Assembly: GCA_005400705.1 (NCBI GenBank)
Contig: GCA_005400705.1_4079.1
DNA from: Escherichia coli
Lineage (GTDB): Bacteria; Pseudomonadota; Gammaproteobacteria; Enterobacterales; Enterobacteriaceae
DNA: 64,000 nt
Reading direction: 5' to 3' (one strand)
This document shows positions 6,129 through 39,048 of the stretch, in pieces. The notes beneath the pieces were generated by a model, which was given only the letters and a program-made list of their open reading frames with translations, was not told the DNA's origin and made no database searches. Both the position numbers and the translations under genes were made by a program. Numbering within the stretch: the first letter of the stretch is position 1; each line of letters starts with the position of its first letter.

Positions 6129-6136
6129 TATTTATA
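6129..6136 (-). promoter_or_regulatory. T4-type late promoter element TATAAATA upstream of lysozyme gene
   Basis: plus-strand tatttata = minus-strand TATAAATA, located between gp5-like stop and lysozyme start. Confidence 0.5.
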
Positions 6137-12263: not shown

Positions 12264-13103
12264 ATGACAAATAGACCAAAGCGTAAAAAGTATCTCAATA
12301 ATGCTGATTTACTGCGTGAAATACAAAAAAGTAAAATTTCATATTGCTGGTTATTAGACAAATCATATAGTATGTATGATTATATTGTTTTTCATGAGTC
12401 AGAAATTACTGCTGAGTTACTAGAAAAAGCTAAGGCAGCCCGAATTAAACGACTGAACAATGAAATGCTTGATAGTATTCGTGAAAAGGAAAATATGAGT
12501 GCTAAAAAAGCTAAAGAATATGCAGATGAACACAATTTAGTTATCACTGACGTTCCAATTGATGAAGTTGTTATTCGTGTTATTACAGATGAACATATTC
12601 CACCAGATACTAGAGTTAACTTTGAACCATTCAAGCATTATATTGTAGATAATGAAGGTATTCTCTATGAAGTTTGTCGTTCTCACTGGAAAGGCGACCT
12701 TGAAACTGGTGAATTCAGTACTGTTCATGGTAAAATTACAAATGAACTTGGGAAGATGTTCATTAAACTTGCAGAGGAAATCTCACACAAATCTAATTAC
12801 AGAAACTATACATACTTAGATGAAATGATGGGTGATGCAAGAATACAATTAGTTAAAAACGCACTTCTCTTTAAAGAGAGCATTCTTTATAAAAAAGATA
12901 AACCAGCAGTTCAGCTAAATCCTTTCTCTTACTATACATCATTCGTAAACAATAGTTTTCGTTCTATATTGAATAGTGAGAAAAATGTTCGAAATATACG
13001 TGATGATTTACTTGAAATGCATGGCTTTACGCCATCACATACACGTCAAATTGAAATTGAATTGAACATGATTGAAAGGAAAAATGAAGATGGCTCTGTT
13101 TGA
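12264..13103 (+). CDS. gp55: late-transcription sigma factor (gp55-like), extended C-terminus
   Basis: N-terminal KYLNNADLLREIQKSK resembles gp55 N-terminus as recalled; T4-like synteny 55-47-46; GGAGAG RBS. Confidence 0.6.
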   Translation: MTNRPKRKKYLNNADLLREIQKSKISYCWLLDKSYSMYDYIVFHESEITAELLEKAKAARIKRLNNEMLDSIREKENMSAKKAKEYADEHNLVITDVPIDEVVIRVITDEHIPPDTRVNFEPFKHYIVDNEGILYEVCRSHWKGDLETGEFSTVHGKITNELGKMFIKLAEEISHKSNYRNYTYLDEMMGDARIQLVKNALLFKESILYKKDKPAVQLNPFSYYTSFVNNSFRSILNSEKNVRNIRDDLLEMHGFTPSHTRQIEIELNMIERKNEDGSV

Positions 13104-26837: not shown

Positions 26838-26928
26838 ACATTTTAAAGCATTTTAATAATCAAATTTTTCAGTTCTATAAATAATATCATACTGAAAAAC
26901 GAATATAACATCTTTAAGGAGATATATA

Positions 26929-28104
26929 ATGTCACAACTACTAAATGAATCCAAATGGGTAGCAGTAAAAGAGAAACTAGTTGAAGGTCTACAGGGTACT
27001 CGTAAGTCTGTAATGGAAACTGTTCTTGATAACCATCGTAAAGTTATGCTAACTGAATCCGCAACTTCTGGTGCAACTACCGCTGGTAACATCGCTACTC
27101 TAAACAAAGTGATTCTACCAATTATGCGTCGTGTAATGCCAACCGTTATTGCTAACGAAATCATCGGTGTTCAACCTATGACTGGTCCAGTTGGTCAGAT
27201 CCACACCCTACGTGTACAATATGCTGATAACGCACCTGGTGTAATCGCTGGTGAAGAAATGCTTTCTCCATACAAAATCGCTAAATCTTACTCTGGTGAT
27301 CTAAATGCGGATAATAGCAACCCACAAGCTGCTCCTACTAGCCAACTAGAAGGTACTATGGGTCGTCGCGTTAACATCCGTATTCTACGTGAAACTGTTG
27401 AAGCGAAATCTCGTCGTCTATCTGCACGTTGGACTGTTGAATCTGCACAAGATGCTCAATCCCAACATGGTGTTGACGTTGAAGCAGAACTAATGGCTGC
27501 AATCGCTCAAGAAGTTACTGTAGAAATCGACCAAGAGCTACTAAGCCGTCTACGTGCACTACCTGGTGCTGCTGCTGTAACTTATGACCAATCTAAAGTT
27601 ACTGGTGTTGCAACCTTCGTTGGTGATGAGCACGCTGCTCTAGCTACTCTAATTAACCGTCAAGCAAACGAAGTTGCTCGTCGTACTAAGCGTGGTGCTG
27701 CAAACTGGGCTGTTGTTTCCCCAACTGCACTAACCATTCTACAATCTGCTACTACTTCTAGCTTTGCACGTACCACTGAAGGTACTTTTGAAGCACCAAC
27801 TAACGTTAAGTTTGTAGGTACTCTAAACAGCACTATGCGTATTTTCGTTGATACCTATGCTAGTGATGCAGAAGATATTCTAATTGGTTATAAAGGTAAT
27901 GCGGAAACTGATGCTGGTGTATTCTATTGCCCATACATCCCACTAATGGCTTCTGGTACTGTAATGGACCCTAACACTGGTGAACTCGTGACCACATTTT
28001 TAACACGCTATGGCTACGTTCAGCTAACCGACAGTACTTCATCTCTTGGTAACGCTGCTGACTACTACAGCAAAATCGCTATCAAAAACGTTACTTTCAT
28101 GTAA
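26929..28104 (+). CDS. gp23: major capsid protein (gp23/gp24 family)
   Basis: 391 aa; IANEIIGVQPMTGPVGQIHTLR, RETVEAKSRRLSA, DAGVFYCPYIPL resemble conserved gp23 segments as recalled; TATAAATA at 26876-26883, AAGGAG RBS. Confidence 0.85.
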   Translation: MSQLLNESKWVAVKEKLVEGLQGTRKSVMETVLDNHRKVMLTESATSGATTAGNIATLNKVILPIMRRVMPTVIANEIIGVQPMTGPVGQIHTLRVQYADNAPGVIAGEEMLSPYKIAKSYSGDLNADNSNPQAAPTSQLEGTMGRRVNIRILRETVEAKSRRLSARWTVESAQDAQSQHGVDVEAELMAAIAQEVTVEIDQELLSRLRALPGAAAVTYDQSKVTGVATFVGDEHAALATLINRQANEVARRTKRGAANWAVVSPTALTILQSATTSSFARTTEGTFEAPTNVKFVGTLNSTMRIFVDTYASDAEDILIGYKGNAETDAGVFYCPYIPLMASGTVMDPNTGELVTTFLTRYGYVQLTDSTSSLGNAADYYSKIAIKNVTFM

Positions 28105-32732: not shown

Positions 32733-35700
32733 ATGTATATCGATGCTTATATGGAACGTAAACGTACTGGTGATATTCTTCATGTAGTTGAACGTAAGAA
32801 TGGTAAACGTATTCTACGCGAATTAGAACCAGTATATGAATATTATGTTGAATCCCCACAAGGAACACATAAAACTGTTTATGGTACAATGGCTAAACAT
32901 TTTGAGTTTCAAACTCAAGCTCAAATGAATAAAAGTGTAGAGCAACACAAAAGTGAAGGTCTACGTATTTTTGAAAGTGATTGTAACATTACATTTAAAA
33001 CATTAGCTAAAGAATATATGGGAAAAGGTTCACCCGATTTGAACATCGTGTTCTTCGATATCGAGACTGATTTCCATAAGAAATTTGGTTATGCTCCACC
33101 ATCAGACCCGTTTAACCGAGTAACCGCTATTTCTCTATATCAATCATGGACTGGAAAGGATTATGTACTTACTTTACCACCTGCTGATATGGAAATTTAT
33201 GAAGCACAAGATATTGTTCGCCAACTAAATGAAGAAACAAACGATCCTAACAGTACTGTAATTTTATATACAGACGAAAAGGAAATGTTTATGGAATTCT
33301 TTAGTTTAATTGATGATTCTGATGTTATTTCAGGATGGAATAGTGAATTCTTTGATATTCCATATATGATCAATCGAACTAAAAAAATCTTCAATGAAGC
33401 AACAACTGCTCGTTGGTGTTTATGGAATAAAAAACCAAATTCACGTGAAGCAGACAACTTTGGTAAAACTGTTCAAACATATGATCTGGTAGGTCGCGTC
33501 CATCTTGATTATTTGGCTTTGTATAAGAAACATGCTGGTCAAGTTGAACAATCTTATAAACTAGATTATATTGCTGAAAAAGTAACTAAAGAAAATAAAG
33601 TATCATATGAAGGTTCATTGGATAAACTTTACAGAGAGGATTACATTACTTTCTTGCGTTATTCTAAACAGGATAGTATTCTTCTTAAAAAGATTGATGC
33701 TAAATGTGACTATATCAACCTACACAATCGACTTGCACACAAAGAATGTGTACTTATCAGTACAACAATGGGTTCAGTAGCACTAATCGACACTGCTATT
33801 ATCAACTTAGCACATACTCGTGGTGAAGTTGTTTTCAACAAAGCACCGAAAGATGATCTTGAGTTTGATCCAGAAATGGAATATTATGGTGAAGATGGTG
33901 AAGATGAAGATGAGAAAATTAGTGCAAAAGCAGCAGGTGCATGGGTACAAGATCCAGTACTAGGACTTGTAAGTGACCTTGGGTGTACTGACTTTAACTC
34001 TCTTTACCCTACTGTTCTACGTACTTTGGGTATGAGTACTGAATGTATTCTTGGTCAATTACGTCAAGATTACACCGATGCGTATCTTGCAGCTAAAATC
34101 CAAGAACAGAAGAACAAATCTAAATCTAAATCATTTGAACCAGATTGGACTGCGGCATGGCATGGTTTATTTGCTGCTGTTGAATTTACAATGGTTCATG
34201 AAAAGTCAGAAGAAACATTGATTGTTGATTTAGAAGATGGGAGTTCTTTTAAAGCAACGGGCAAAGAGCTATATGATATTATTTTTGCAGAAGATAGTAC
34301 TATTGTACTTAGTGCAAACGGAACACTTTTTGATAAGTCTAAGTCTGGTGTAATTCCTGACATTCTAACTCAATGGTATTCTGAACGTAAAGCACAGCAA
34401 AAAATGGTCATTGACTACAAACATATGTATACTGATGGTTGGGAGTTTAATGGCTATGAAAAAGTCGAACCACTACTATCAAACTATACCCCTGGTACAA
34501 TGTTTAGAACTAATATTCATGATAATGATCCTGTATACTTACTTCGTAAAGAAATTGGTAAAGGACAGTGGGATGAAGTTGCTAAGTTGATTGTAGAAAA
34601 CGGATTAGTACTAAAAGATGGTCGTATTTTCTGTCCTAAAGAAGAAAAAGATTACTTCAAACAACGTAGTGCTTTCTGGAAACAGAACCAACAGATTCGT
34701 AAGATTCTTCTAAACAGTCTATATGGTGCACTATTGAACAAAGGTTCTCGTTTTTTTGACAAACGTTTAGGTCAATCCGTAACATTAACTGGACGTTCTA
34801 TGACCAAACATATGGCAAGTCGTATCAATGAAATTACTACTGGTGTATATAACCACCAAGGTGGTTCAGTAATTTATGGTGATACTGACTCAGTTTACTT
34901 TAGTGTAACTCATTATCTGAAAGAACAAGGTATTCCATATAATCTATCTAAAGAAGAGATTGTTGATATGTATATTAAAATTGGTGAAGAAGTTGGTGAA
35001 TCTTTCCCATCATTTATGCATGAGATGTTCAACACTGGTATTGAAAAAGGTAAGATTGTTGGTGCAGACCTTGAGATGGTTGGTTCGCGTGGCCTATTCT
35101 TGAAGAAAAAACGTTATGCAATTCTGAAGTACTGGGAAGATGGGTTCCGTAAAGATATTGATGGTAAACCAGGTGAAATCAAAGCGATGGGTCTTGAAAT
35201 TAAACGCTCAGACACGCCAAAATACATCCAGAACTTCCTAGAAGAGACTCTAATCGCATTACTGGTAGGTGAGAGTGAACAACAGCTAAAACAGCGTGTA
35301 CGTGAGTTTAAGGACGTATTTAAGGATATGCCTGTACATGAAAAAGGTTCACCAAAAACTGTAAAAAACTACACTAATTTAGAGGCTGAATATCAGCTAA
35401 CTGGTAAGTGTAAAGTTGGTCACGTTCTTGCTGGTATCCAATGGAACCGTCTACGTGAAGTTTATGATGATAAATCTGTTCCAGAAGTAACAGATGGAAC
35501 AAAAGTAATTGTCTGTAACTTAAAAGATAATCCTATGGGAATTAAAGCAGTTGGTTATCCAATTGACTGTGTTGAGTATCTTCCAGAATGGTTCTTGGAA
35601 CTACCATTTGATACTGAAAAAATGGAAGAGATTGTTCTAACTAAAAAATTAGAGAATATTTTTGGTATTTTGGATATGGATATTGGTATTCATGAAAAAA

Positions 35701-35738
35701 GTACTGCGTCAGTAAACAATGGATTCTTCACTTGGTAA
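32733..35738 (+). CDS. gp43: DNA polymerase, family B (gp43-like)
   Basis: 1001 aa; exonuclease motif FFDIETD; polymerase motifs DFNSLYPT and YGDTDS. Confidence 0.9.
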   Translation: MYIDAYMERKRTGDILHVVERKNGKRILRELEPVYEYYVESPQGTHKTVYGTMAKHFEFQTQAQMNKSVEQHKSEGLRIFESDCNITFKTLAKEYMGKGSPDLNIVFFDIETDFHKKFGYAPPSDPFNRVTAISLYQSWTGKDYVLTLPPADMEIYEAQDIVRQLNEETNDPNSTVILYTDEKEMFMEFFSLIDDSDVISGWNSEFFDIPYMINRTKKIFNEATTARWCLWNKKPNSREADNFGKTVQTYDLVGRVHLDYLALYKKHAGQVEQSYKLDYIAEKVTKENKVSYEGSLDKLYREDYITFLRYSKQDSILLKKIDAKCDYINLHNRLAHKECVLISTTMGSVALIDTAIINLAHTRGEVVFNKAPKDDLEFDPEMEYYGEDGEDEDEKISAKAAGAWVQDPVLGLVSDLGCTDFNSLYPTVLRTLGMSTECILGQLRQDYTDAYLAAKIQEQKNKSKSKSFEPDWTAAWHGLFAAVEFTMVHEKSEETLIVDLEDGSSFKATGKELYDIIFAEDSTIVLSANGTLFDKSKSGVIPDILTQWYSERKAQQKMVIDYKHMYTDGWEFNGYEKVEPLLSNYTPGTMFRTNIHDNDPVYLLRKEIGKGQWDEVAKLIVENGLVLKDGRIFCPKEEKDYFKQRSAFWKQNQQIRKILLNSLYGALLNKGSRFFDKRLGQSVTLTGRSMTKHMASRINEITTGVYNHQGGSVIYGDTDSVYFSVTHYLKEQGIPYNLSKEEIVDMYIKIGEEVGESFPSFMHEMFNTGIEKGKIVGADLEMVGSRGLFLKKKRYAILKYWEDGFRKDIDGKPGEIKAMGLEIKRSDTPKYIQNFLEETLIALLVGESEQQLKQRVREFKDVFKDMPVHEKGSPKTVKNYTNLEAEYQLTGKCKVGHVLAGIQWNRLREVYDDKSVPEVTDGTKVIVCNLKDNPMGIKAVGYPIDCVEYLPEWFLELPFDTEKMEEIVLTKKLENIFGILDMDIGIHEKSTASVNNGFFTW

Positions 35739-35899: not shown

Positions 35900-36188
35900 T
35901 ATATATAAGCGTATTGGTGAAGTATTAGAAGGCAATGGTATCATTAATTCTGTACTAGCATATGATAATGATGAAGAAGTAGTTCTAATTGGTGCGGGTT
36001 TTACTCGCACTGGTTCAGTGGAAGTTGACGGAGAGATTGCTGATGTTTACACTCTTGTGAAAAAGCGTAAAGTTGTTTTTGTCGATGATGTACATACATT
36101 AAAAGACTTGAAAAAATTACGAGATAAAATTGGCATGAGTTCTACAATTGATAAGCCTTATCTTCAACGTTGGAATACAAAATACTGA
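35889..36188 (+). CDS. hypothetical protein
   Basis: 99-aa track ORF. Confidence 0.4.
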   Translation: MMSNIYKRIGEVLEGNGIINSVLAYDNDEEVVLIGAGFTRTGSVEVDGEIADVYTLVKKRKVVFVDDVHTLKDLKKLRDKIGMSSTIDKPYLQRWNTKY

Positions 36189-36196
36189 TAAAAAAT

Positions 36197-36225
36197 TGAG
36201 ACAAGCATCATTTTTGAGATATAAT
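36197..36225 (+). promoter_or_regulatory. promoter, TGAGAC-N17-TATAAT class
   Basis: TGAGAC 36197-36202, 17-nt spacer, TATAAT 36220-36225. Confidence 0.5.
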
Positions 36226-36289
36226 GGTGCTTGTAGTAATCTTACATAAAAACATTTTTTGATTAACAAATAAAACGGAGAATTATATA

Positions 36290-37021
36290 ATGGATCTACG
36301 CAACGTACTACGTGACCTCGTAAACACAACCAGTGGTATTGACTTCTCTTGTATTGCAGTAAGCAGTGAAGACCGTGGTGAAGGACAACGTGTATATCTA
36401 GAAGCGTACACAGATGACCGAACTCTTGTAATGCGAGCATATACTAAAGAAGATGTTCCTGAAGTTCAGGGTCGTTTTGGCTTAGGTAATCTAGGTCTTC
36501 TTCAGGGTCTAATGTCTCTAAAAACATACAGTACCGAAGGAACCACAATCACATCAAATGTTAAAGATGGTTCAGTTAAAAGTCTGGCATTTAAATCTGA
36601 AGATGCAAGCACTACATTTATGGTACAAGCTGAAAAACTTATTCCAGTTCAACCACGTTTTCATGAACAACCATATGACGTACAGGTTATTCCTAGTGCA
36701 GCAAAAGTTCAGGAACTAAAGAGTTTTTCTGGTGTATTTAAATCTTTTAGTTCTCTTGTAACTCCGTATACTGAAGGCGACACCCTATACTTTCACGTTG
36801 GTGAGAAAAACAAAAGTAACCACGTTGGTTCTCTAGCTTTTTCTAAAACTGAAGGTGAATTAGGTCTTGGTTTTGGTTATAATATTGATCGCGTACTTCA
36901 AGCATTATCTCGCGTATCTAATGCCGAATCAGTATCACTTGGTATTACTAAAACTGGTATGCTAAATGTAACACTAGATACTGGAATTGCAGTATACAAA
37001 TTTTACGTAACAGGCTGCTAA
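36290..37021 (+). CDS. putative sliding clamp (gp45-like)
   Basis: 243 aa, size and weak N-terminal resemblance (VNTTSGI vs T4 ATINSGI as recalled); low-confidence product. Confidence 0.45.
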   Translation: MDLRNVLRDLVNTTSGIDFSCIAVSSEDRGEGQRVYLEAYTDDRTLVMRAYTKEDVPEVQGRFGLGNLGLLQGLMSLKTYSTEGTTITSNVKDGSVKSLAFKSEDASTTFMVQAEKLIPVQPRFHEQPYDVQVIPSAAKVQELKSFSGVFKSFSSLVTPYTEGDTLYFHVGEKNKSNHVGSLAFSKTEGELGLGFGYNIDRVLQALSRVSNAESVSLGITKTGMLNVTLDTGIAVYKFYVTGC

Positions 37022-37022
37022 T

Positions 37023-37030
37023 ATAAATAA
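37023..37030 (+). promoter_or_regulatory. late-promoter-like TATAAATA element followed by hairpin
   Basis: TATAAATA then GGGGAACA-cta-TGTTCCCC hairpin 37032-37050. Confidence 0.35.
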
Positions 37031-37085
37031 CGGGGAACACTATGTTCCCCAAATTAGTTTGATTTAAAAAGTAAAGGAATACAAA

Positions 37086-37292
37086 ATGCCATTATATACA
37101 TATCGTTGTGAAAAAGAAGAATGCAAACATAGCATGGAAAAAATTGTTAAAATTGCAAATCGTGATGAACCTCATGATTGTCCTAAATGTAATGGTGAAA
37201 AAACTATGAAGTTGGAAGTGTTCACTCCAGGTGATAAGGGTGCTAATCTTTATTTCCGTGGAAAATGGTTTGCAAATACTGGAGGTTACTGA
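37086..37292 (+). CDS. FmdB-family zinc-ribbon protein
   Basis: MPLYTYRCEKEECKH...DCPKCNG matches MPIYEY-C-x2-C...C-P-x-C-G zinc-ribbon pattern. Confidence 0.55.
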   Translation: MPLYTYRCEKEECKHSMEKIVKIANRDEPHDCPKCNGEKTMKLEVFTPGDKGANLYFRGKWFANTGGY

Positions 37293-37293
37293 T

Positions 37294-37593
37294 ATGAAAA
37301 TTAAAATGATTAATGATTACGTTCTTGTTCGACAAATTGAAGCACAGAATAAAAGTACTGGTGGTATTATTCTAGGTAATGTTGAACCACCATGTATTGG
37401 GATGGTAATTTCCGTTGGTCCAGGTAAAATTCTTCCGAACGGACAACTTGCAGAACATAATATTAAAGAAGGTGATATGGTTGTGTTTGGTCGTTCATCT
37501 TTGAACACACCACTGACTGAAGATCTTGGTGGCGGTGAAGATACATATTATGTAATGAAAATCGAAGAGATTTTTGGTAAGAAAAATGGCTAA
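37294..37593 (+). CDS. GroES-like co-chaperonin (Cpn10 family; functional analogue of T4 gp31)
   Basis: 99 aa; YVLVRQIEAQNKSTGGIILGN mobile-loop signature, GMVISVGPG, IKEGDMVVF; GGAGG RBS 37281-37285; track start at 37231 is an upstream extension. Confidence 0.75.
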   Translation: MKIKMINDYVLVRQIEAQNKSTGGIILGNVEPPCIGMVISVGPGKILPNGQLAEHNIKEGDMVVFGRSSLNTPLTEDLGGGEDTYYVMKIEEIFGKKNG

Positions 37594-38311
37594 AAAGAAA
37601 TTTATTCCATTTTGGATGGTCCCTGCTCACTGGGGACTTTCTGGAAAGGCAAAAGAGATAGCTAAAGCATACTACTACAATGATGATTATGAAGCTGATA
37701 TGAAAGTTGCTGAATTGACATATCTAACTCCATATGAAGTTGAAGTGGCCCAATTGGATATTAAAAAGAAATATAGCGTAATTGGAGATTTGGAATATCT
37801 AATTGCTGCACTTGATGTTGAACTAAAATATTCTAAAATTACTCGTGAACAGTATGATGTTAAAGTTCTTGATGCAAAACTAAGTATTGGAGTTATTACA
37901 GAAAAAGAATATGATATGGAAATCATTGAGTTAATGCCAGAAGGTGATGAAAAAAGGCTTAAGGCTATTGAATTTGCATATCGTTACGATGAAATCACAC
38001 AAAGTGAATATTCTAAGGAAATATACACACTTCGTAAAGAACCTTGGATTGATTTGGATGTTGTTCTTGATCCTGAAACTAATGAAGTTGAGTTTGTATT
38101 TGACTATAATGAATATTTCTGGAAAAAGTTGAAAGCTGAAGGTCATCCAGGAAATGATGAAGAAGAAATTATCGATAACTTTGTGAGAGACTTGGGGCGT
38201 AAACTTGCTACGGATGATTTCAGTGATGATTACGACACAAAGCTGGTGAGTGCGAACGAAGGATTAGACAAGCTACCTGGTTTGCCTGAAGGATTTCGTT
38301 CATATAGATAA
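37586..38311 (+). CDS. hypothetical protein
   Basis: Track ORF from TTG 37574, ATG at 37586. Confidence 0.5.
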   Translation: MAKKKFIPFWMVPAHWGLSGKAKEIAKAYYYNDDYEADMKVAELTYLTPYEVEVAQLDIKKKYSVIGDLEYLIAALDVELKYSKITREQYDVKVLDAKLSIGVITEKEYDMEIIELMPEGDEKRLKAIEFAYRYDEITQSEYSKEIYTLRKEPWIDLDVVLDPETNEVEFVFDYNEYFWKKLKAEGHPGNDEEEIIDNFVRDLGRKLATDDFSDDYDTKLVSANEGLDKLPGLPEGFRSYR

Positions 38312-38323
38312 CATATAAAAAAA

Positions 38324-38350
38324 GGAGAGCAAATGCTCTCCTTTTCTTTT
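38324..38350. terminator. bidirectional rho-independent terminator
   Basis: GGAGAGC-aaat-GCTCTCC with TTTTCTTTT downstream on plus and T-run on minus. Confidence 0.65.
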
Positions 38351-38358
38351 GAAAAATA

Positions 38359-39048
38359 TTAAACCAATGCTGGGATGTATTGGAAAAGTTTAACACCGAA
38401 ATCACCTGCTGCATCAGCAGATTGGGAACGTAGGTAAACTTCGGTAACACCATCTTTAGCAAGTAGTGGAACACCAGTTAGATCATCAATTAGTAGACGG
38501 CCTTCTTCGGATTCAGTACTTGGTACACCTTGTGGTGATTTAAGATCTTTGTTAAAGACACCCGCACGTTCAACTAGGAAGGTAACAACAGAAGCATCAG
38601 CAATACTAACTGAACCTGCACTCAATACACCATCAGGTGCGTTGGTGAAACCAGTAACTGGAAATACTTCAAGACCATTACCTGCGATGTTAGAGGTAGC
38701 GATGATAACCGCACGTTGTTGAACAACATCGACAATACGTTTAACGTTAGTTTGTGCTGCATAAGATGCATTGTAATCAGCTTCTAGTGTGCCAAGAACA
38801 AATGCAGTTCCATCAATACGTTTGATACCTTTATCATTTAGATATGCTAGAATTTCTTCTGGAATATCAGTGTTTAGAAAACGTTGTAGACCAGCATAAG
38901 AAGAAACTGCACCAGTAACTAGAACGTTTACGTCTCCTAGCTTACTGATAGCAATGGATGCTAGGGCGTTAGTGCCACAAAAGTAACCTAGAATACGTTC
39001 AAAGGAATAACCATTGATACGTTCAAAAGAAGTATTAGTATATGACAT
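38359..39048 (-). CDS. putative virion structural protein, paralogue A of tandem pair
   Basis: 229 aa, A/G/V/T/S-rich; shares QQRAV(I/L)..TS...FxNAxP...TF(L/I)xER.xVFNK with the adjacent gene. Confidence 0.55.
   Translation of the reverse strand: MSYTNTSFERINGYSFERILGYFCGTNALASIAISKLGDVNVLVTGAVSSYAGLQRFLNTDIPEEILAYLNDKGIKRIDGTAFVLGTLEADYNASYAAQTNVKRIVDVVQQRAVIIATSNIAGNGLEVFPVTGFTNAPDGVLSAGSVSIADASVVTFLVERAGVFNKDLKSPQGVPSTESEEGRLLIDDLTGVPLLAKDGVTEVYLRSQSADAAGDFGVKLFQYIPALV

Follow-up and report, generated by a model that had tools for sequence, protein, structure and literature searches.

Only two precedents for a phage co-chaperonin of the kind considered here have been tested, T4 gp31 and RB49 CocO, and both proved to be productive co-chaperonins (PMC5649160). 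Earlier work in which phage co-chaperonins are reported to substitute for GroES is cited in PMC5259590 and PMC5649160 (Keppel 2002; Ang 2001). In both gp31 and CocO the roof hairpin of GroES is deleted, resulting in an enlarged folding cage, and viral GroES mobile loops are recognized by a conserved glycine that is followed by three small hydrophobic residues (PMC5649160). Genes for the small subunit, that is, the co-chaperonin, are carried by 165 of 2178 phage genomes (PMC5649160). The GroES genes of Rak2-like phages have been treated in PMC5259590, and GroES is counted among the conserved orthologues of this group (PMC5852040); in the literature on the GroES of Rak2-like phages, we found no experiments on the protein studied here or on other members of its clade.

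The window analyzed in this work is a stretch of 64,000 nucleotides from an Escherichia coli assembly (GCA_005400705.1) that belongs to an Asteriusvirus jumbo coliphage, with positions 36000-39000 being 100% identical to the phages phAPEC6, SP27 and E9.1. At the locus of interest, a gene for a small zinc-ribbon protein is followed by a gene for a GroES homologue. RefSeq already names the two products "zinc ribbon domain-containing protein" and "co-chaperonin GroES" (gp508 and gp507 of PBECO4, respectively). Given that both genes are annotated publicly and that GroES is known from the literature as one of the group's signature genes, the observation of the pair is correct but ordinary, and the window gene does not differ materially from the GroES genes of the clade in the databases. 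What is new here is the zinc-ribbon to GroES gene order in all 17 related viral contigs and the clamp-like fold of the 243-aa protein encoded upstream. Our preferred reading, to which we assign a probability of roughly 0.8, is that the GroES homologue is a divergent Cpn10 lid that docks on the host GroEL and is encoded by the middle cistron of a three-gene unit that is probably expressed late. The features that bear on this reading are the following:

36290..37021, plus strand: predicted PCNA-like sliding clamp, a 243-aa 'hypothetical protein' (AF2 model and Foldseek), outside the operon
37022..37029, plus strand: TATAAATA, candidate T4-type late promoter, exact match, 56 nt upstream of the zinc-ribbon start codon
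37032..37050, plus strand: hairpin with a perfect 8-bp stem and a 3-nt loop (GGGGAACA cta TGTTCCCC)
37074..37078, plus strand: Shine-Dalgarno AAGGA of the zinc-ribbon gene, 7 nt before the ATG, read from the sequence
37086..37292, plus strand: FmdB-family zinc ribbon, 68 aa (PF09723, TIGR02605, PHROG 13665)
37281..37285, plus strand: Shine-Dalgarno GGAGG of GroES, within the last zinc-ribbon codons, 8 nt before the ATG
37294..37593, plus strand: GroES/Cpn10 co-chaperonin homologue, 99 aa, ATG start (Pfam, PHROG and PDB-chain matches)
37586..38311, plus strand: virion-annotated protein, 241 aa (PHROG 13349 'virion structural protein', E 1e-119)
38317..38348, no strand assigned: strong bidirectional terminator, stem of 14 pairs and a T-run, a terminator in the annotation of phage G17

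Multiple comparisons place the 99-aa protein, by sequence, within the GroES (Cpn10) family as a genuine though divergent member. With the Pfam Cpn10 profile (PF00166), the protein reaches 61.8 bits, where the gathering score is 21.1 (E 6.5e-17), in an alignment that spans positions 1-92 of the 93 in the profile; failure to align with this family was what the initial annotation had named as grounds for abandoning its claim of a bacterial GroES signature with a mobile loop, and the profile search upholds that claim over nearly the full length of the domain. Furthermore, the protein matches PHROG 3188 'co-chaperonin GroES' (E 8e-28) and solved GroES chains in the PDB over residues 3-92 (E 5.7e-12 to 3e-9). 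Its mobile loop, NKSTGGIILGN, spans residues 19-29 (DNA positions 37348-37380), and G24-I25-I26-L27 aligns to G24-I25-V26-L27 of E. coli GroES, in agreement with the tripeptide expected for GroEL binding. Among 14 members of the clade, G24, I25 and L27 do not vary at all, and E31, P33 and C34 hardly do. The coordinates of the pair, 37086-37593, and the predicted lengths of 68 and 99 aa were likewise exact. By contrast with these matches, all 13 NCBIfam GroES models score below their cut-offs, the best being NF001527 with 54.9 bits against 120; hence the protein is a divergent family member that stands apart from typical bacterial orthologues, and it could have a different partner specificity.

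The same picture emerges from direct comparison with the host protein (PDB 1AON chain O). The phage protein shares 39% identity with E. coli GroES over residues 1-65, a common GGI(I/V)L mobile-loop core and a roof hairpin of equal length (residues 43-55, PGKILPNGQLAEH versus NGRILENGEVKPL in E. coli, gap-free, as judged from the alignment only), and the overall lengths are 99 and 97 aa. The differences lie in the mobile loop, which has 2 residues fewer than its counterparts in E. coli and Thermus GroES and leads into an E-P-P-C motif that is invariant in the clade, and in the C-terminal third, which has diverged and carries a 4-residue LGGG insertion in the Asteriusvirus genus. Since the phage protein is no closer to E. 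coli GroES than to Thermus GroES, it is not a recent capture from the host. The search for homologues recovered 24 clusters, all of them members of the clade. In this clade, the same gene, which databases label 'co-chaperonin GroES', is represented by PBECO4 gp507, 121Q gp615, phAPEC6 gp213c, RaK2 ORF104, GAP32_262 and CBB_268, with 100% identity to the window protein in 121Q, PBECO4, phAPEC6 and SP27, 74% in RaK2, and 54-57% in GAP32, CBB and Serratia phage BF.

The presumed job, a phage-made lid for the host GroEL, would be the same as that of gp31 and CocO, and the gene resides in a large myovirus, distantly T4-related, that lacks a GroEL of its own. However, the roof hairpin that is kept in the window protein is absent from gp31 and CocO (PMC5649160). 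The initial annotation had set the protein apart from T4 gp31, and this distinction holds: a BLASTP comparison with a gp31 sequence gave no alignment at E <= 100, and no family of the gp31 type is present among the PHROG matches. A different contrast is provided by a second GroES of some related jumbo phages, typified by CBB_131 of the Mimasvirus/Eneladusvirus branch. This protein is also of the Cpn10 family and shows 23% identity to the window GroES and 44% to Salmonella GroES; a deletion has removed approximately 9 residues from its roof hairpin, and no zinc-ribbon gene stands in front of it; none was found in the Asteriusvirus and RaK2-type records.

With respect to the partner of the phage GroES, a tblastn search with E. 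coli GroEL gave 252 phage records in which 'Escherichia' fell outside the ten commonest organism names (the tenth accounting for 7 records), in a collection that includes more than 30 Asteriusvirus records. Because no GroEL was found in Asteriusvirus phages, the partner is inferred to be the host GroEL. We propose that the phage protein most likely forms a heptameric lid whose GGIIL mobile loop docks onto host GroEL, and that this lid would sustain the folding of phage proteins by the chaperonin in the course of infection. The obvious candidate client is the 42-kDa major head protein (encoded at 26929-28104), of which about 1620 copies are required per capsid (PMC7247149). Given the retention of the roof hairpin, the folding cage should have the normal GroES size, unlike the cages closed by the roofless gp31 and CocO, and what the phage gains is thus more likely supply, or an altered affinity for GroEL, than an enlarged cavity. 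A GroES with a normal roof has no obvious advantage over that of the host.

The zinc-ribbon protein encoded immediately upstream had been assigned to the FmdB type, and it passes the cut-offs of both relevant models, namely Pfam Zn_ribbon_8 (PF09723; 41.7 bits versus 34.4) and TIGR02605 'FmdB family zinc ribbon protein' (44.4 bits versus 31.3), in addition to matching PHROG 13665 (E 5e-40). Four cysteines that are the putative zinc ligands of two knuckles (Cys8, Cys13, Cys32 and Cys35) are invariant in 10 sequences, with the first knuckle being CxxxxC rather than CxxC. The C-terminal tail is aromatic, conserved and predicted to be disordered. The AF2 model, which is based on a shallow alignment of 7 sequences, has pLDDT values of about 70 in residues 1-45 that drop under 50 in residues 48-68 (mean 61), and a Foldseek search of the PDB with this model returned nothing with E <0.3, the only matches being generic zinc-ribbon modules of MCM N-terminal domains. 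Profile comparison detects a homologous zinc-ribbon domain in T4 gp39.2 (hhalign probability 97.6%, E 2.7e-12), and gp39.2, the FmdB family and the clade proteins, all of 58-69 aa, have in common the pattern MPxYxYxC..C....EKI.K...R....C..C. The zinc ribbons of the Rak2 clade differ in having a conserved tail of their own, FTPGDKG..LYFRG.WF.NTG.Y, and in always preceding GroES, whereas the T4-type gp39.2 is encoded among early genes, in a cluster with 39, goF, cef and motB. The subfamily found in the window is confined to the clade, with 6 clusters among 5.8 billion proteins. Our search of the literature on FmdB in phages found no functional data. Most likely, the zinc ribbon is a small partner-binding or regulatory protein that would act via its conserved disordered aromatic tail; nothing beyond the invariant gene order ties it mechanistically to GroES.

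This gene order is strict. The zinc ribbon is located immediately upstream of GroES in all 17 IMG/VR loci, which are related viral contigs with GroES identities of 54-100%. The initial annotation regarded the pair as coupled, with the start of GroES overlapping the stop of the zinc-ribbon gene. The adjacency is real, and the overlap is not: the junction reads TGA(37290-92)-T-ATG(37294-96), with a gap of 1 nt, and among clade members the distance ranges from an overlap of 1 nt to a separation of 25 nt. An overlap arises only with the longer start that RefSeq gives for PBECO4, GTG-37258, located 36 nt earlier, a start that is without support from the alignment of the family. The placement of the GroES Shine-Dalgarno (GGGAG...TAAtATG) recurs in RaK2, Hallingskeid and several metagenomic relatives. 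On the downstream side, the first 8 nt of the gene for the 241-aa virion-annotated protein are also the last 8 nt of GroES (ATGGCTAA), and this overlap is conserved in PBECO4, RaK2, CBB and Hallingskeid. The 241-aa protein went undetected in phAPEC6 virion mass spectrometry. Neither GroES nor the zinc ribbon is part of the phAPEC6 virion proteome, which does include the neighboring gp210, gp211 and gp215c; the two proteins are not virion components. The terminator at 38317..38348 ends both the operon and the convergent virion genes on the minus strand. The zinc ribbon, GroES and the 241-aa protein form a compact unit of three genes with GroES as its central cistron, and the unit is bounded by the probable terminator hairpin of the PCNA-like clamp gene upstream and the strong bidirectional terminator downstream.

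The upstream boundary of this unit consists of a motif and a hairpin, both of which are present as the initial annotation had it. Instead of being part of a control element of GroES, the hairpin at 37032-37050 is most likely an intrinsic terminator or 3' stabilizer of the clamp gene. In the annotation of phage G17, it is a terminator (ARNOLD, -13.3 kcal/mol). In RaK2, CBB and Hallingskeid, too, a hairpin follows the clamp gene at this position, with a sequence that differs; in CBB and Hallingskeid it comes with clear T-runs. The octamer TATAAATA is not above chance in the window in its raw count (7 found, approximately 10 expected). The placement of the copies is non-random: with ORFs called on the window itself, six of the 7 are intergenic, compared with 2.05 +/- 1.4 in intergenic shuffles that keep the composition (at least 6 in 37 of 2000), and the shorter ATAAATA is intergenic in 16 of its 22 occurrences in the window, against 6.1 +/- 2.4 in composition-matched shuffles, of which 1 of 2000 reached 16. 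The intergenic enrichment of TATAAATA/ATAAATA over composition-matched shuffles is moderate. Moreover, 15 of the 16 intergenic ATAAATA copies lie 11-110 nt upstream of a gene on the same strand (13 within 64 nt), including a copy at 26877 that precedes the major head gene; the window encodes a late sigma of the gp55 type (12264-13103; PHROG 234, E 8e-18); and for the related phages CBB and GAP32 this motif has already been put forward as a late promoter (PMC5259590). With this moderate support, TATAAATA at 37022 is plausibly the late promoter of the operon, from which the three-gene unit would probably be transcribed late in Asteriusvirus. Outside this genus the case for a late promoter is weak: RaK2 has TATAAGTA at the equivalent spot, and the Mimasvirus/Eneladusvirus branch has no such motif, the pair there starting about 10 nt after a phosphoesterase gene. 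Also against a late promoter, the start site expected approximately 6-8 nt past TATAAATA would fall within the 5' arm of the hairpin.

The gene that precedes the hairpin encodes the 243-aa protein, for which the AF2 model has a pLDDT of 91.6 and a pTM of 0.88. Foldseek matches this model to yeast and human PCNA in the PDB with a probability of 1.00 (TM 0.72-0.74, E 7.7e-11), and on the strength of this predicted fold the protein appears to be the sliding clamp that the Rak2-like clade was reported to lack. Two sigma-70-like promoters, at 36196-36225 and 36263-36291, match 11 of 12 positions, and the transcription unit of the clamp gene appears to end at the hairpin 37032-37050.

Two alternatives concern the action and the expression of the phage GroES. 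Conceivably, TATAAATA and the hairpin are no control element of GroES at all, being simply the terminator of the clamp gene with a chance A/T-rich flank, in which case the unit would be expressed by partial read-through or from an unrecognized promoter. On the minus strand TATAAATA would then be the T-tract that follows the hairpin stem, and indeed the scan calls the hairpin on that strand too, with the tail TTATTTATAT; phage 121Q has the whole palindrome flipped and otherwise unchanged; and the position of the hairpin after the clamp gene is conserved while the octamer is not, which adds to the chance-level total count of the octamer and the G17 terminator call. Against this stand the presence of the late sigma gene, the location of motif copies 16-47 nt upstream of the genes for the major head protein, a scaffold-like protein, two baseplate hub proteins and one virion protein, and the status of ATAAATA as the commonest intergenic 7-mer of its composition (16 versus 6.1 expected); we consider the terminator-only explanation possible but doubtful. 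We hold it to be quite improbable that the phage protein is a GroES mimic that commandeers or throttles host GroEL instead of serving as a general folding aid. The shorter, and in that event stiffer, loop with its E-P-P-C could bind GroEL more tightly, so that phage clients are favored or host or defense functions blocked; the scores below all NCBIfam GroES cut-offs fit this idea, and the second, more host-like and roofless GroES of the CBB_131 type suggests that the two proteins have differing jobs in some relatives. However, the hallmarks of GroEL contact and the roof hairpin are all conserved, as expected for a working lid, inhibition is indicated by no data, and the productive activity of gp31 and CocO (PMC5649160) points the other way.

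The remaining alternatives concern the zinc ribbon, which might be an accessory or specificity factor of GroES, held at a fixed ratio by translational coupling in a two-component chaperone module. The order of the genes, which is invariant in four named genera in addition to the 17 related contigs, the clade-confined distribution of the subfamily, the GroES Shine-Dalgarno within the zinc-ribbon coding sequence, and stops and starts that are 1 nt apart or overlapping in several lineages (TGAtATG, TAAtATG and TAATG) are all compatible with such a module. However, the branch of CBB, GAP32 and Yersinia phages has a spacing of 15-25 nt and separate Shine-Dalgarno sequences, and the overlap that is universally conserved is that of GroES with the downstream virion-protein gene. 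Furthermore, both genes are present clade-wide, so their co-occurrence is inseparable from shared ancestry, and the homologue searches gave no independent lineages in which it could be assessed. A general association of zinc ribbon and GroES is contradicted by Vibrio phage D93, where GroES is preceded by a helix-turn-helix gene, and by the T4-type phages, in which the zinc ribbon is not beside the co-chaperonin gene and gp39.2 lies far from any such gene in its early cluster; these cases also speak against the module, which we rate as unlikely. Alternatively, the zinc ribbon could belong with the PCNA-like clamp, its aromatic tail being a clamp-binding peptide, for example, that of the missing gp33-like co-activator. 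This proposal is purely conjectural. It would fit with the clamp fold predicted for the product of the upstream gene, with the presence in the clade of a gp55-type late sigma without a recognized gp33 (PMC5259590), with the invariance of a tail that is nonetheless predicted to be disordered, and with the conserved GFFxW tail of similar character in which the DNA polymerase of the clade ends. However, the resemblance of the tails is loose (G-K/N-W-F...Y versus G-F-F-x-W), a phosphoesterase gene separates the clamp and the zinc ribbon in most of the clade, and the fold search with the zinc ribbon yielded nothing significant. Because the gp55-like sigma is without an aromatic C-terminus, no clamp-binding consensus is common to the zinc-ribbon tail, the polymerase tail and the late sigma. 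A role as a clamp partner seems very unlikely. In the broadest formulation, the zinc ribbon, whose gene always lies between those of the clamp and GroES, would be a dedicated adaptor that acts via its aromatic tail, either as a specificity factor for GroES/GroEL or as a gp33-like link between the clamp and the gp55-type sigma, a notion to which we give little credence. The divergent Cpn10 lid for host GroEL, encoded between the zinc ribbon and the virion-annotated protein, remains our favored interpretation of the locus.

As such, the finding of the GroES gene adds little, considering that phage GroES genes are common and that the window gene is covered in RefSeq and in the literature. The occurrence of a phage GroES with a normal roof, together with a second, roofless one in some relatives, could show why phages duplicate an abundant host function. 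The predicted clamp bears on how the T4-like late transcription of the clade works. Furthermore, the strict order of zinc ribbon and GroES offers a testable handle on an uncharacterized family of small proteins that includes T4 gp39.2; should the zinc ribbon turn out to be an adaptor, this would be the first function for gp39.2 and for the FmdB family in phages.

The 99-aa ORF of this locus encodes a co-chaperonin homologue of the GroES type, and the features that surround it, including a sigma gene located further away, are the following.

12264-13103, gp55-type late sigma gene
32733-35738, DNA polymerase, first in the local gene order and followed by two small ORFs that precede the 243-aa gene
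36196-36225 and 36263-36291, + strand, sigma-70-like promoters (11/12 positions matched) directly upstream of the 243-aa gene
36290-37021, + strand, 243-aa 'hypothetical protein'
37022-37029, TATAAATA, ahead of the hairpin
37032-37050, perfect 8-bp hairpin between the 243-aa gene and the zinc ribbon
37086-37292, + strand, zinc ribbon of the FmdB family, 68 aa
37294-37593, + strand, GroES, 99 aa, from ATG 37294
37586-38311, + strand, 241-aa protein (annotation: virion structural protein)
38317-38348, strong bidirectional terminator 3' of the 241-aa gene, with two convergent virion-protein genes beyond it

The Pfam Cpn10 profile aligns with the 99-aa protein in its entirety (61.8 bits, gathering score 21.1; E 6.5e-17), PHROG 3188 'co-chaperonin GroES' matches at E 8e-28, and solved GroES structures match with E values from 5.7e-12 (Thermus) to 3e-9 (E. 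coli 1AON). BLASTP yields 39% identity to E. coli GroES over residues 1-65, with GGIIL opposite GGIVL, and, in the mobile loop, residues G24, I25 and L27 do not vary across an alignment of 14 members of the clade of Rak2-like jumbo phages (57-100% identical to the window's protein) with E. coli GroES. The initial annotation, which had proposed both ORFs with these boundaries, a bacterial mobile-loop signature and a contrast with T4 gp31, is borne out on all these points; with the gp31 sequence used, no alignment was found. In the same clade alignment, the roof hairpin segment, which gp31 and CocO lack by the criterion of PMC5649160, aligns with E. coli GroES free of gaps, so that, in contrast to these two roofless proteins, the window's GroES appears to retain the cage-closing roof. 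Compared with bacterial GroES, the loop arm that follows GGIIL lacks 2 residues and leads into a nearly invariant E-P-P-C motif, a signature of the clade, and a 4-residue insertion near the C-terminus, LGGG, marks the Asteriusvirus/RaK2-type subgroup. The protein misses all NCBIfam GroES cut-offs (54.9 bits vs 120), and Thermus GroES is as close to it as enterobacterial GroES; its lineage is old and divergent, and it was not captured recently from the host.

The 3 kb around the locus recur with 100% identity in Escherichia phages vB_EcoM_phAPEC6, SP27 and E9.1, and with 97.7-99.9% identity in PBECO4, 121Q, slurp01 and other members of Asteriusvirus, a genus of jumbo myoviruses of ~350 kb in the Rak2-like group. 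The GroES reading is correct, yet already annotated and published: RefSeq NC_027364 (PBECO4) lists gp508 as 'zinc ribbon domain-containing protein' and gp507 as 'co-chaperonin GroES', and GroES is likewise annotated in 121Q, phAPEC6, RaK2 (ORF104), GAP32, CBB (CBB_268), Serratia phage BF, the Yersinia fHe-Yen9 phages and others. The GroES-like genes of the clade have been considered alongside T4 gp31 and RB49 CocO in the CBB paper (PMC5259590), 'GroES chaperonin' has been reported in the XacN1 paper as an orthologue conserved in the jumbo-phage group and missing from T4 (PMC5852040), and Marine et al. found a co-chaperonin gene in 165 of 2178 phage genomes (PMC5649160). The RefSeq start of PBECO4 GroES, GTG 37258 (111 aa), which makes the gene overlap the zinc ribbon, is an annotation error: we favour the 99-aa call because the family alignment begins at ATG 37294, GGAGG lies 8 nt upstream of this codon, and the Pfam Cpn10 match starts at profile position 1. 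The lengths of 107 and 114 aa given for GroES in UE-S1 and another cluster are also annotation errors.

The initial annotation of the 68-aa partner as an FmdB-type zinc ribbon also stands: the protein passes both Pfam Zn_ribbon_8 and TIGR02605 ('FmdB family zinc ribbon protein'), with C8, C13, C32 and C35 invariant. The exact subfamily was found in the clade only. By tblastn, hundreds of T4-type genomes show a weak but consistent match in a small ORF, gp39.2, annotated as 'FmdB-like transcriptional regulator', and profile-profile comparison of the two gives a probability of 97.6% (E 2.7e-12); in T4-type phages, gp39.2 belongs to an early cluster with genes 39, goF, cef and motB. Our search of the literature returned no report on the function of FmdB/gp39.2-type phage zinc ribbons. 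AlphaFold2 models residues 1-45 as a ribbon with modest confidence (pLDDT ~70) and the tail, residues 48-68, as disordered (pLDDT <50); a fold search with this model was uninformative. The tail is largely invariant (FT.GDKG...G.WF..TG.Y), and the combination of conservation, disorder and aromatic residues suggests a putative partner-binding peptide. In the 121Q and UB records the zinc ribbon is mislabelled 'type I antifreeze protein', and in Erwinia phage Hallingskeid (2290-2490 of its record) the ORF is present but unannotated, the GroES gene being over-extended instead.

The order zinc ribbon-GroES occurs in all 17 IMG/VR loci, with GroES identities of 54-100%, and it is clade-wide gene order only that links the two. 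The overlap of the GroES start with the zinc-ribbon stop is the one detail of the initial annotation that fails, the junction reading TGA-T-ATG, a 1-nt gap; otherwise the observation is real and its interpretation is supported. Across the 17 loci this junction varies between a 1-nt overlap (TAATG), a 1-nt gap and a spacing of 15-25 nt, the last with its own Shine-Dalgarno sequence. The 8-nt overlap of the GroES stop with the start of the 241-aa gene (ATGGCTAA) is kept in every genus examined (PBECO4, RaK2, CBB and Hallingskeid). The phAPEC6 virion proteome includes gp210, gp211 and gp215c, the 243-aa protein; gp212c to gp214c (241-aa protein, GroES and zinc ribbon) were not detected in it (PMC7247149), and the structural status of the 241-aa protein in Asteriusvirus is therefore uncertain.

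The 243-aa protein (PBECO4 gp509; PHROG 12062 'unknown') obtained no assignment from Pfam, NCBIfam or functional PHROGs. Its confident AlphaFold2 model (pLDDT 91.6, pTM 0.88) matches PCNA sliding clamps in Foldseek with probability 1.00 and TM 0.72-0.74 (yeast PCNA ~0.73) at ~12% identity, and with high confidence we predict a PCNA-like sliding clamp. The clade has been described as having no gp45 homologue (PMC5259590). The DNA polymerase ends (35700-35738) in a clade-conserved aromatic tail, ...N.GFFxW, which is a plausible candidate clamp-binding peptide and fits the predicted clamp. Mass spectrometry of phAPEC6 virions detected single-stranded DNA-binding and RecA-like proteins, as it did the predicted clamp.

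With respect to transcription, TATAAATA and a hairpin do precede the gene pair, as initially annotated, but the hairpin probably belongs to the upstream 243-aa gene, as argued by its label as a terminator in phage G17 and by a hairpin of other sequence at the same place after this gene in RaK2, CBB and Hallingskeid, with a clear T-run in the latter two. Most clade members have a phosphoesterase gene inserted behind this terminator, with the zinc ribbon ~10 nt beyond that gene and no motif; the equivalent site in RaK2 reads TATAAGTA. In 121Q the whole palindrome is flipped, GGGGAACATAGTGTTCCCC against GGGGAACACTATGTTCCCC: a minor inversion polymorphism in phages that are nearly identical elsewhere.

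That the motif is simply the A/T flank of the terminator appears to us the less likely reading. The raw count of TATAAATA in the window is at chance (7 vs ~10 expected). By ORFs called on the window itself, 6 of 7 copies of TATAAATA and 16 of 22 of ATAAATA are intergenic, a moderate enrichment over shuffles that preserve the A/T-rich intergenic composition (n=2000): 6.1 +/- 2.4 copies of ATAAATA are expected and 1/2000 shuffles reach 16, whereas for TATAAATA 2.05 are expected and 37/2000 reach 6. Fifteen of the 16 intergenic ATAAATA copies are followed on the same strand by a gene that starts 11-110 nt further on, the distance being no more than 64 nt for 13 of these copies; examples of (T)ATAAATA lie at 6129, 12168, 19721, 25667, 26876 and 37022, and the downstream genes include those for the major head, a scaffold-like protein, two baseplate hubs and a virion protein. 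About 6 of the 16 copies have a hairpin directly after them, a recurrent arrangement of stop codon, motif, hairpin and Shine-Dalgarno. The placement and enrichment of the motif, the gp55-type sigma gene and the proposal of the same motif as late promoter of CBB and GAP32 (PMC5259590) make it plausible, with a probability of roughly 0.6, that Asteriusvirus transcribes the three-gene unit late. The sigma-70-like promoters suggest that host RNA polymerase expresses the predicted clamp gene in the early or middle phase, and they fit an early/middle unit that ends at the hairpin and is followed by a late unit.

As for the chaperonin itself, E. coli GroEL retrieves 252 phage records by tblastn, chiefly from Vibrio, Flavobacterium, Staphylococcus and Pseudomonas phages; 'Escherichia' does not figure among the ten most frequent organism names, of which the tenth counts 7 records, despite >30 Asteriusvirus genomes in the collection, and therefore Asteriusvirus has no detectable GroEL and we infer host GroEL as the partner. 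A second GroES, the CBB_131 type, occurs in CBB (908-1189 of its record, adjoining a tyrosyl-tRNA synthetase gene), GAP32, Hallingskeid, and Yersinia, Erwinia and Serratia phages, and is missing from Asteriusvirus and RaK2-type records. This type, found in Mimasvirus/Eneladusvirus-type relatives, resembles host GroES more closely, with 44% identity to Salmonella GroES, and is roofless like gp31 and CocO, ~9 roof-hairpin residues being deleted. For Asteriusvirus, the best reading is that a divergent, normal-roofed phage GroES would cap host GroEL in late infection.
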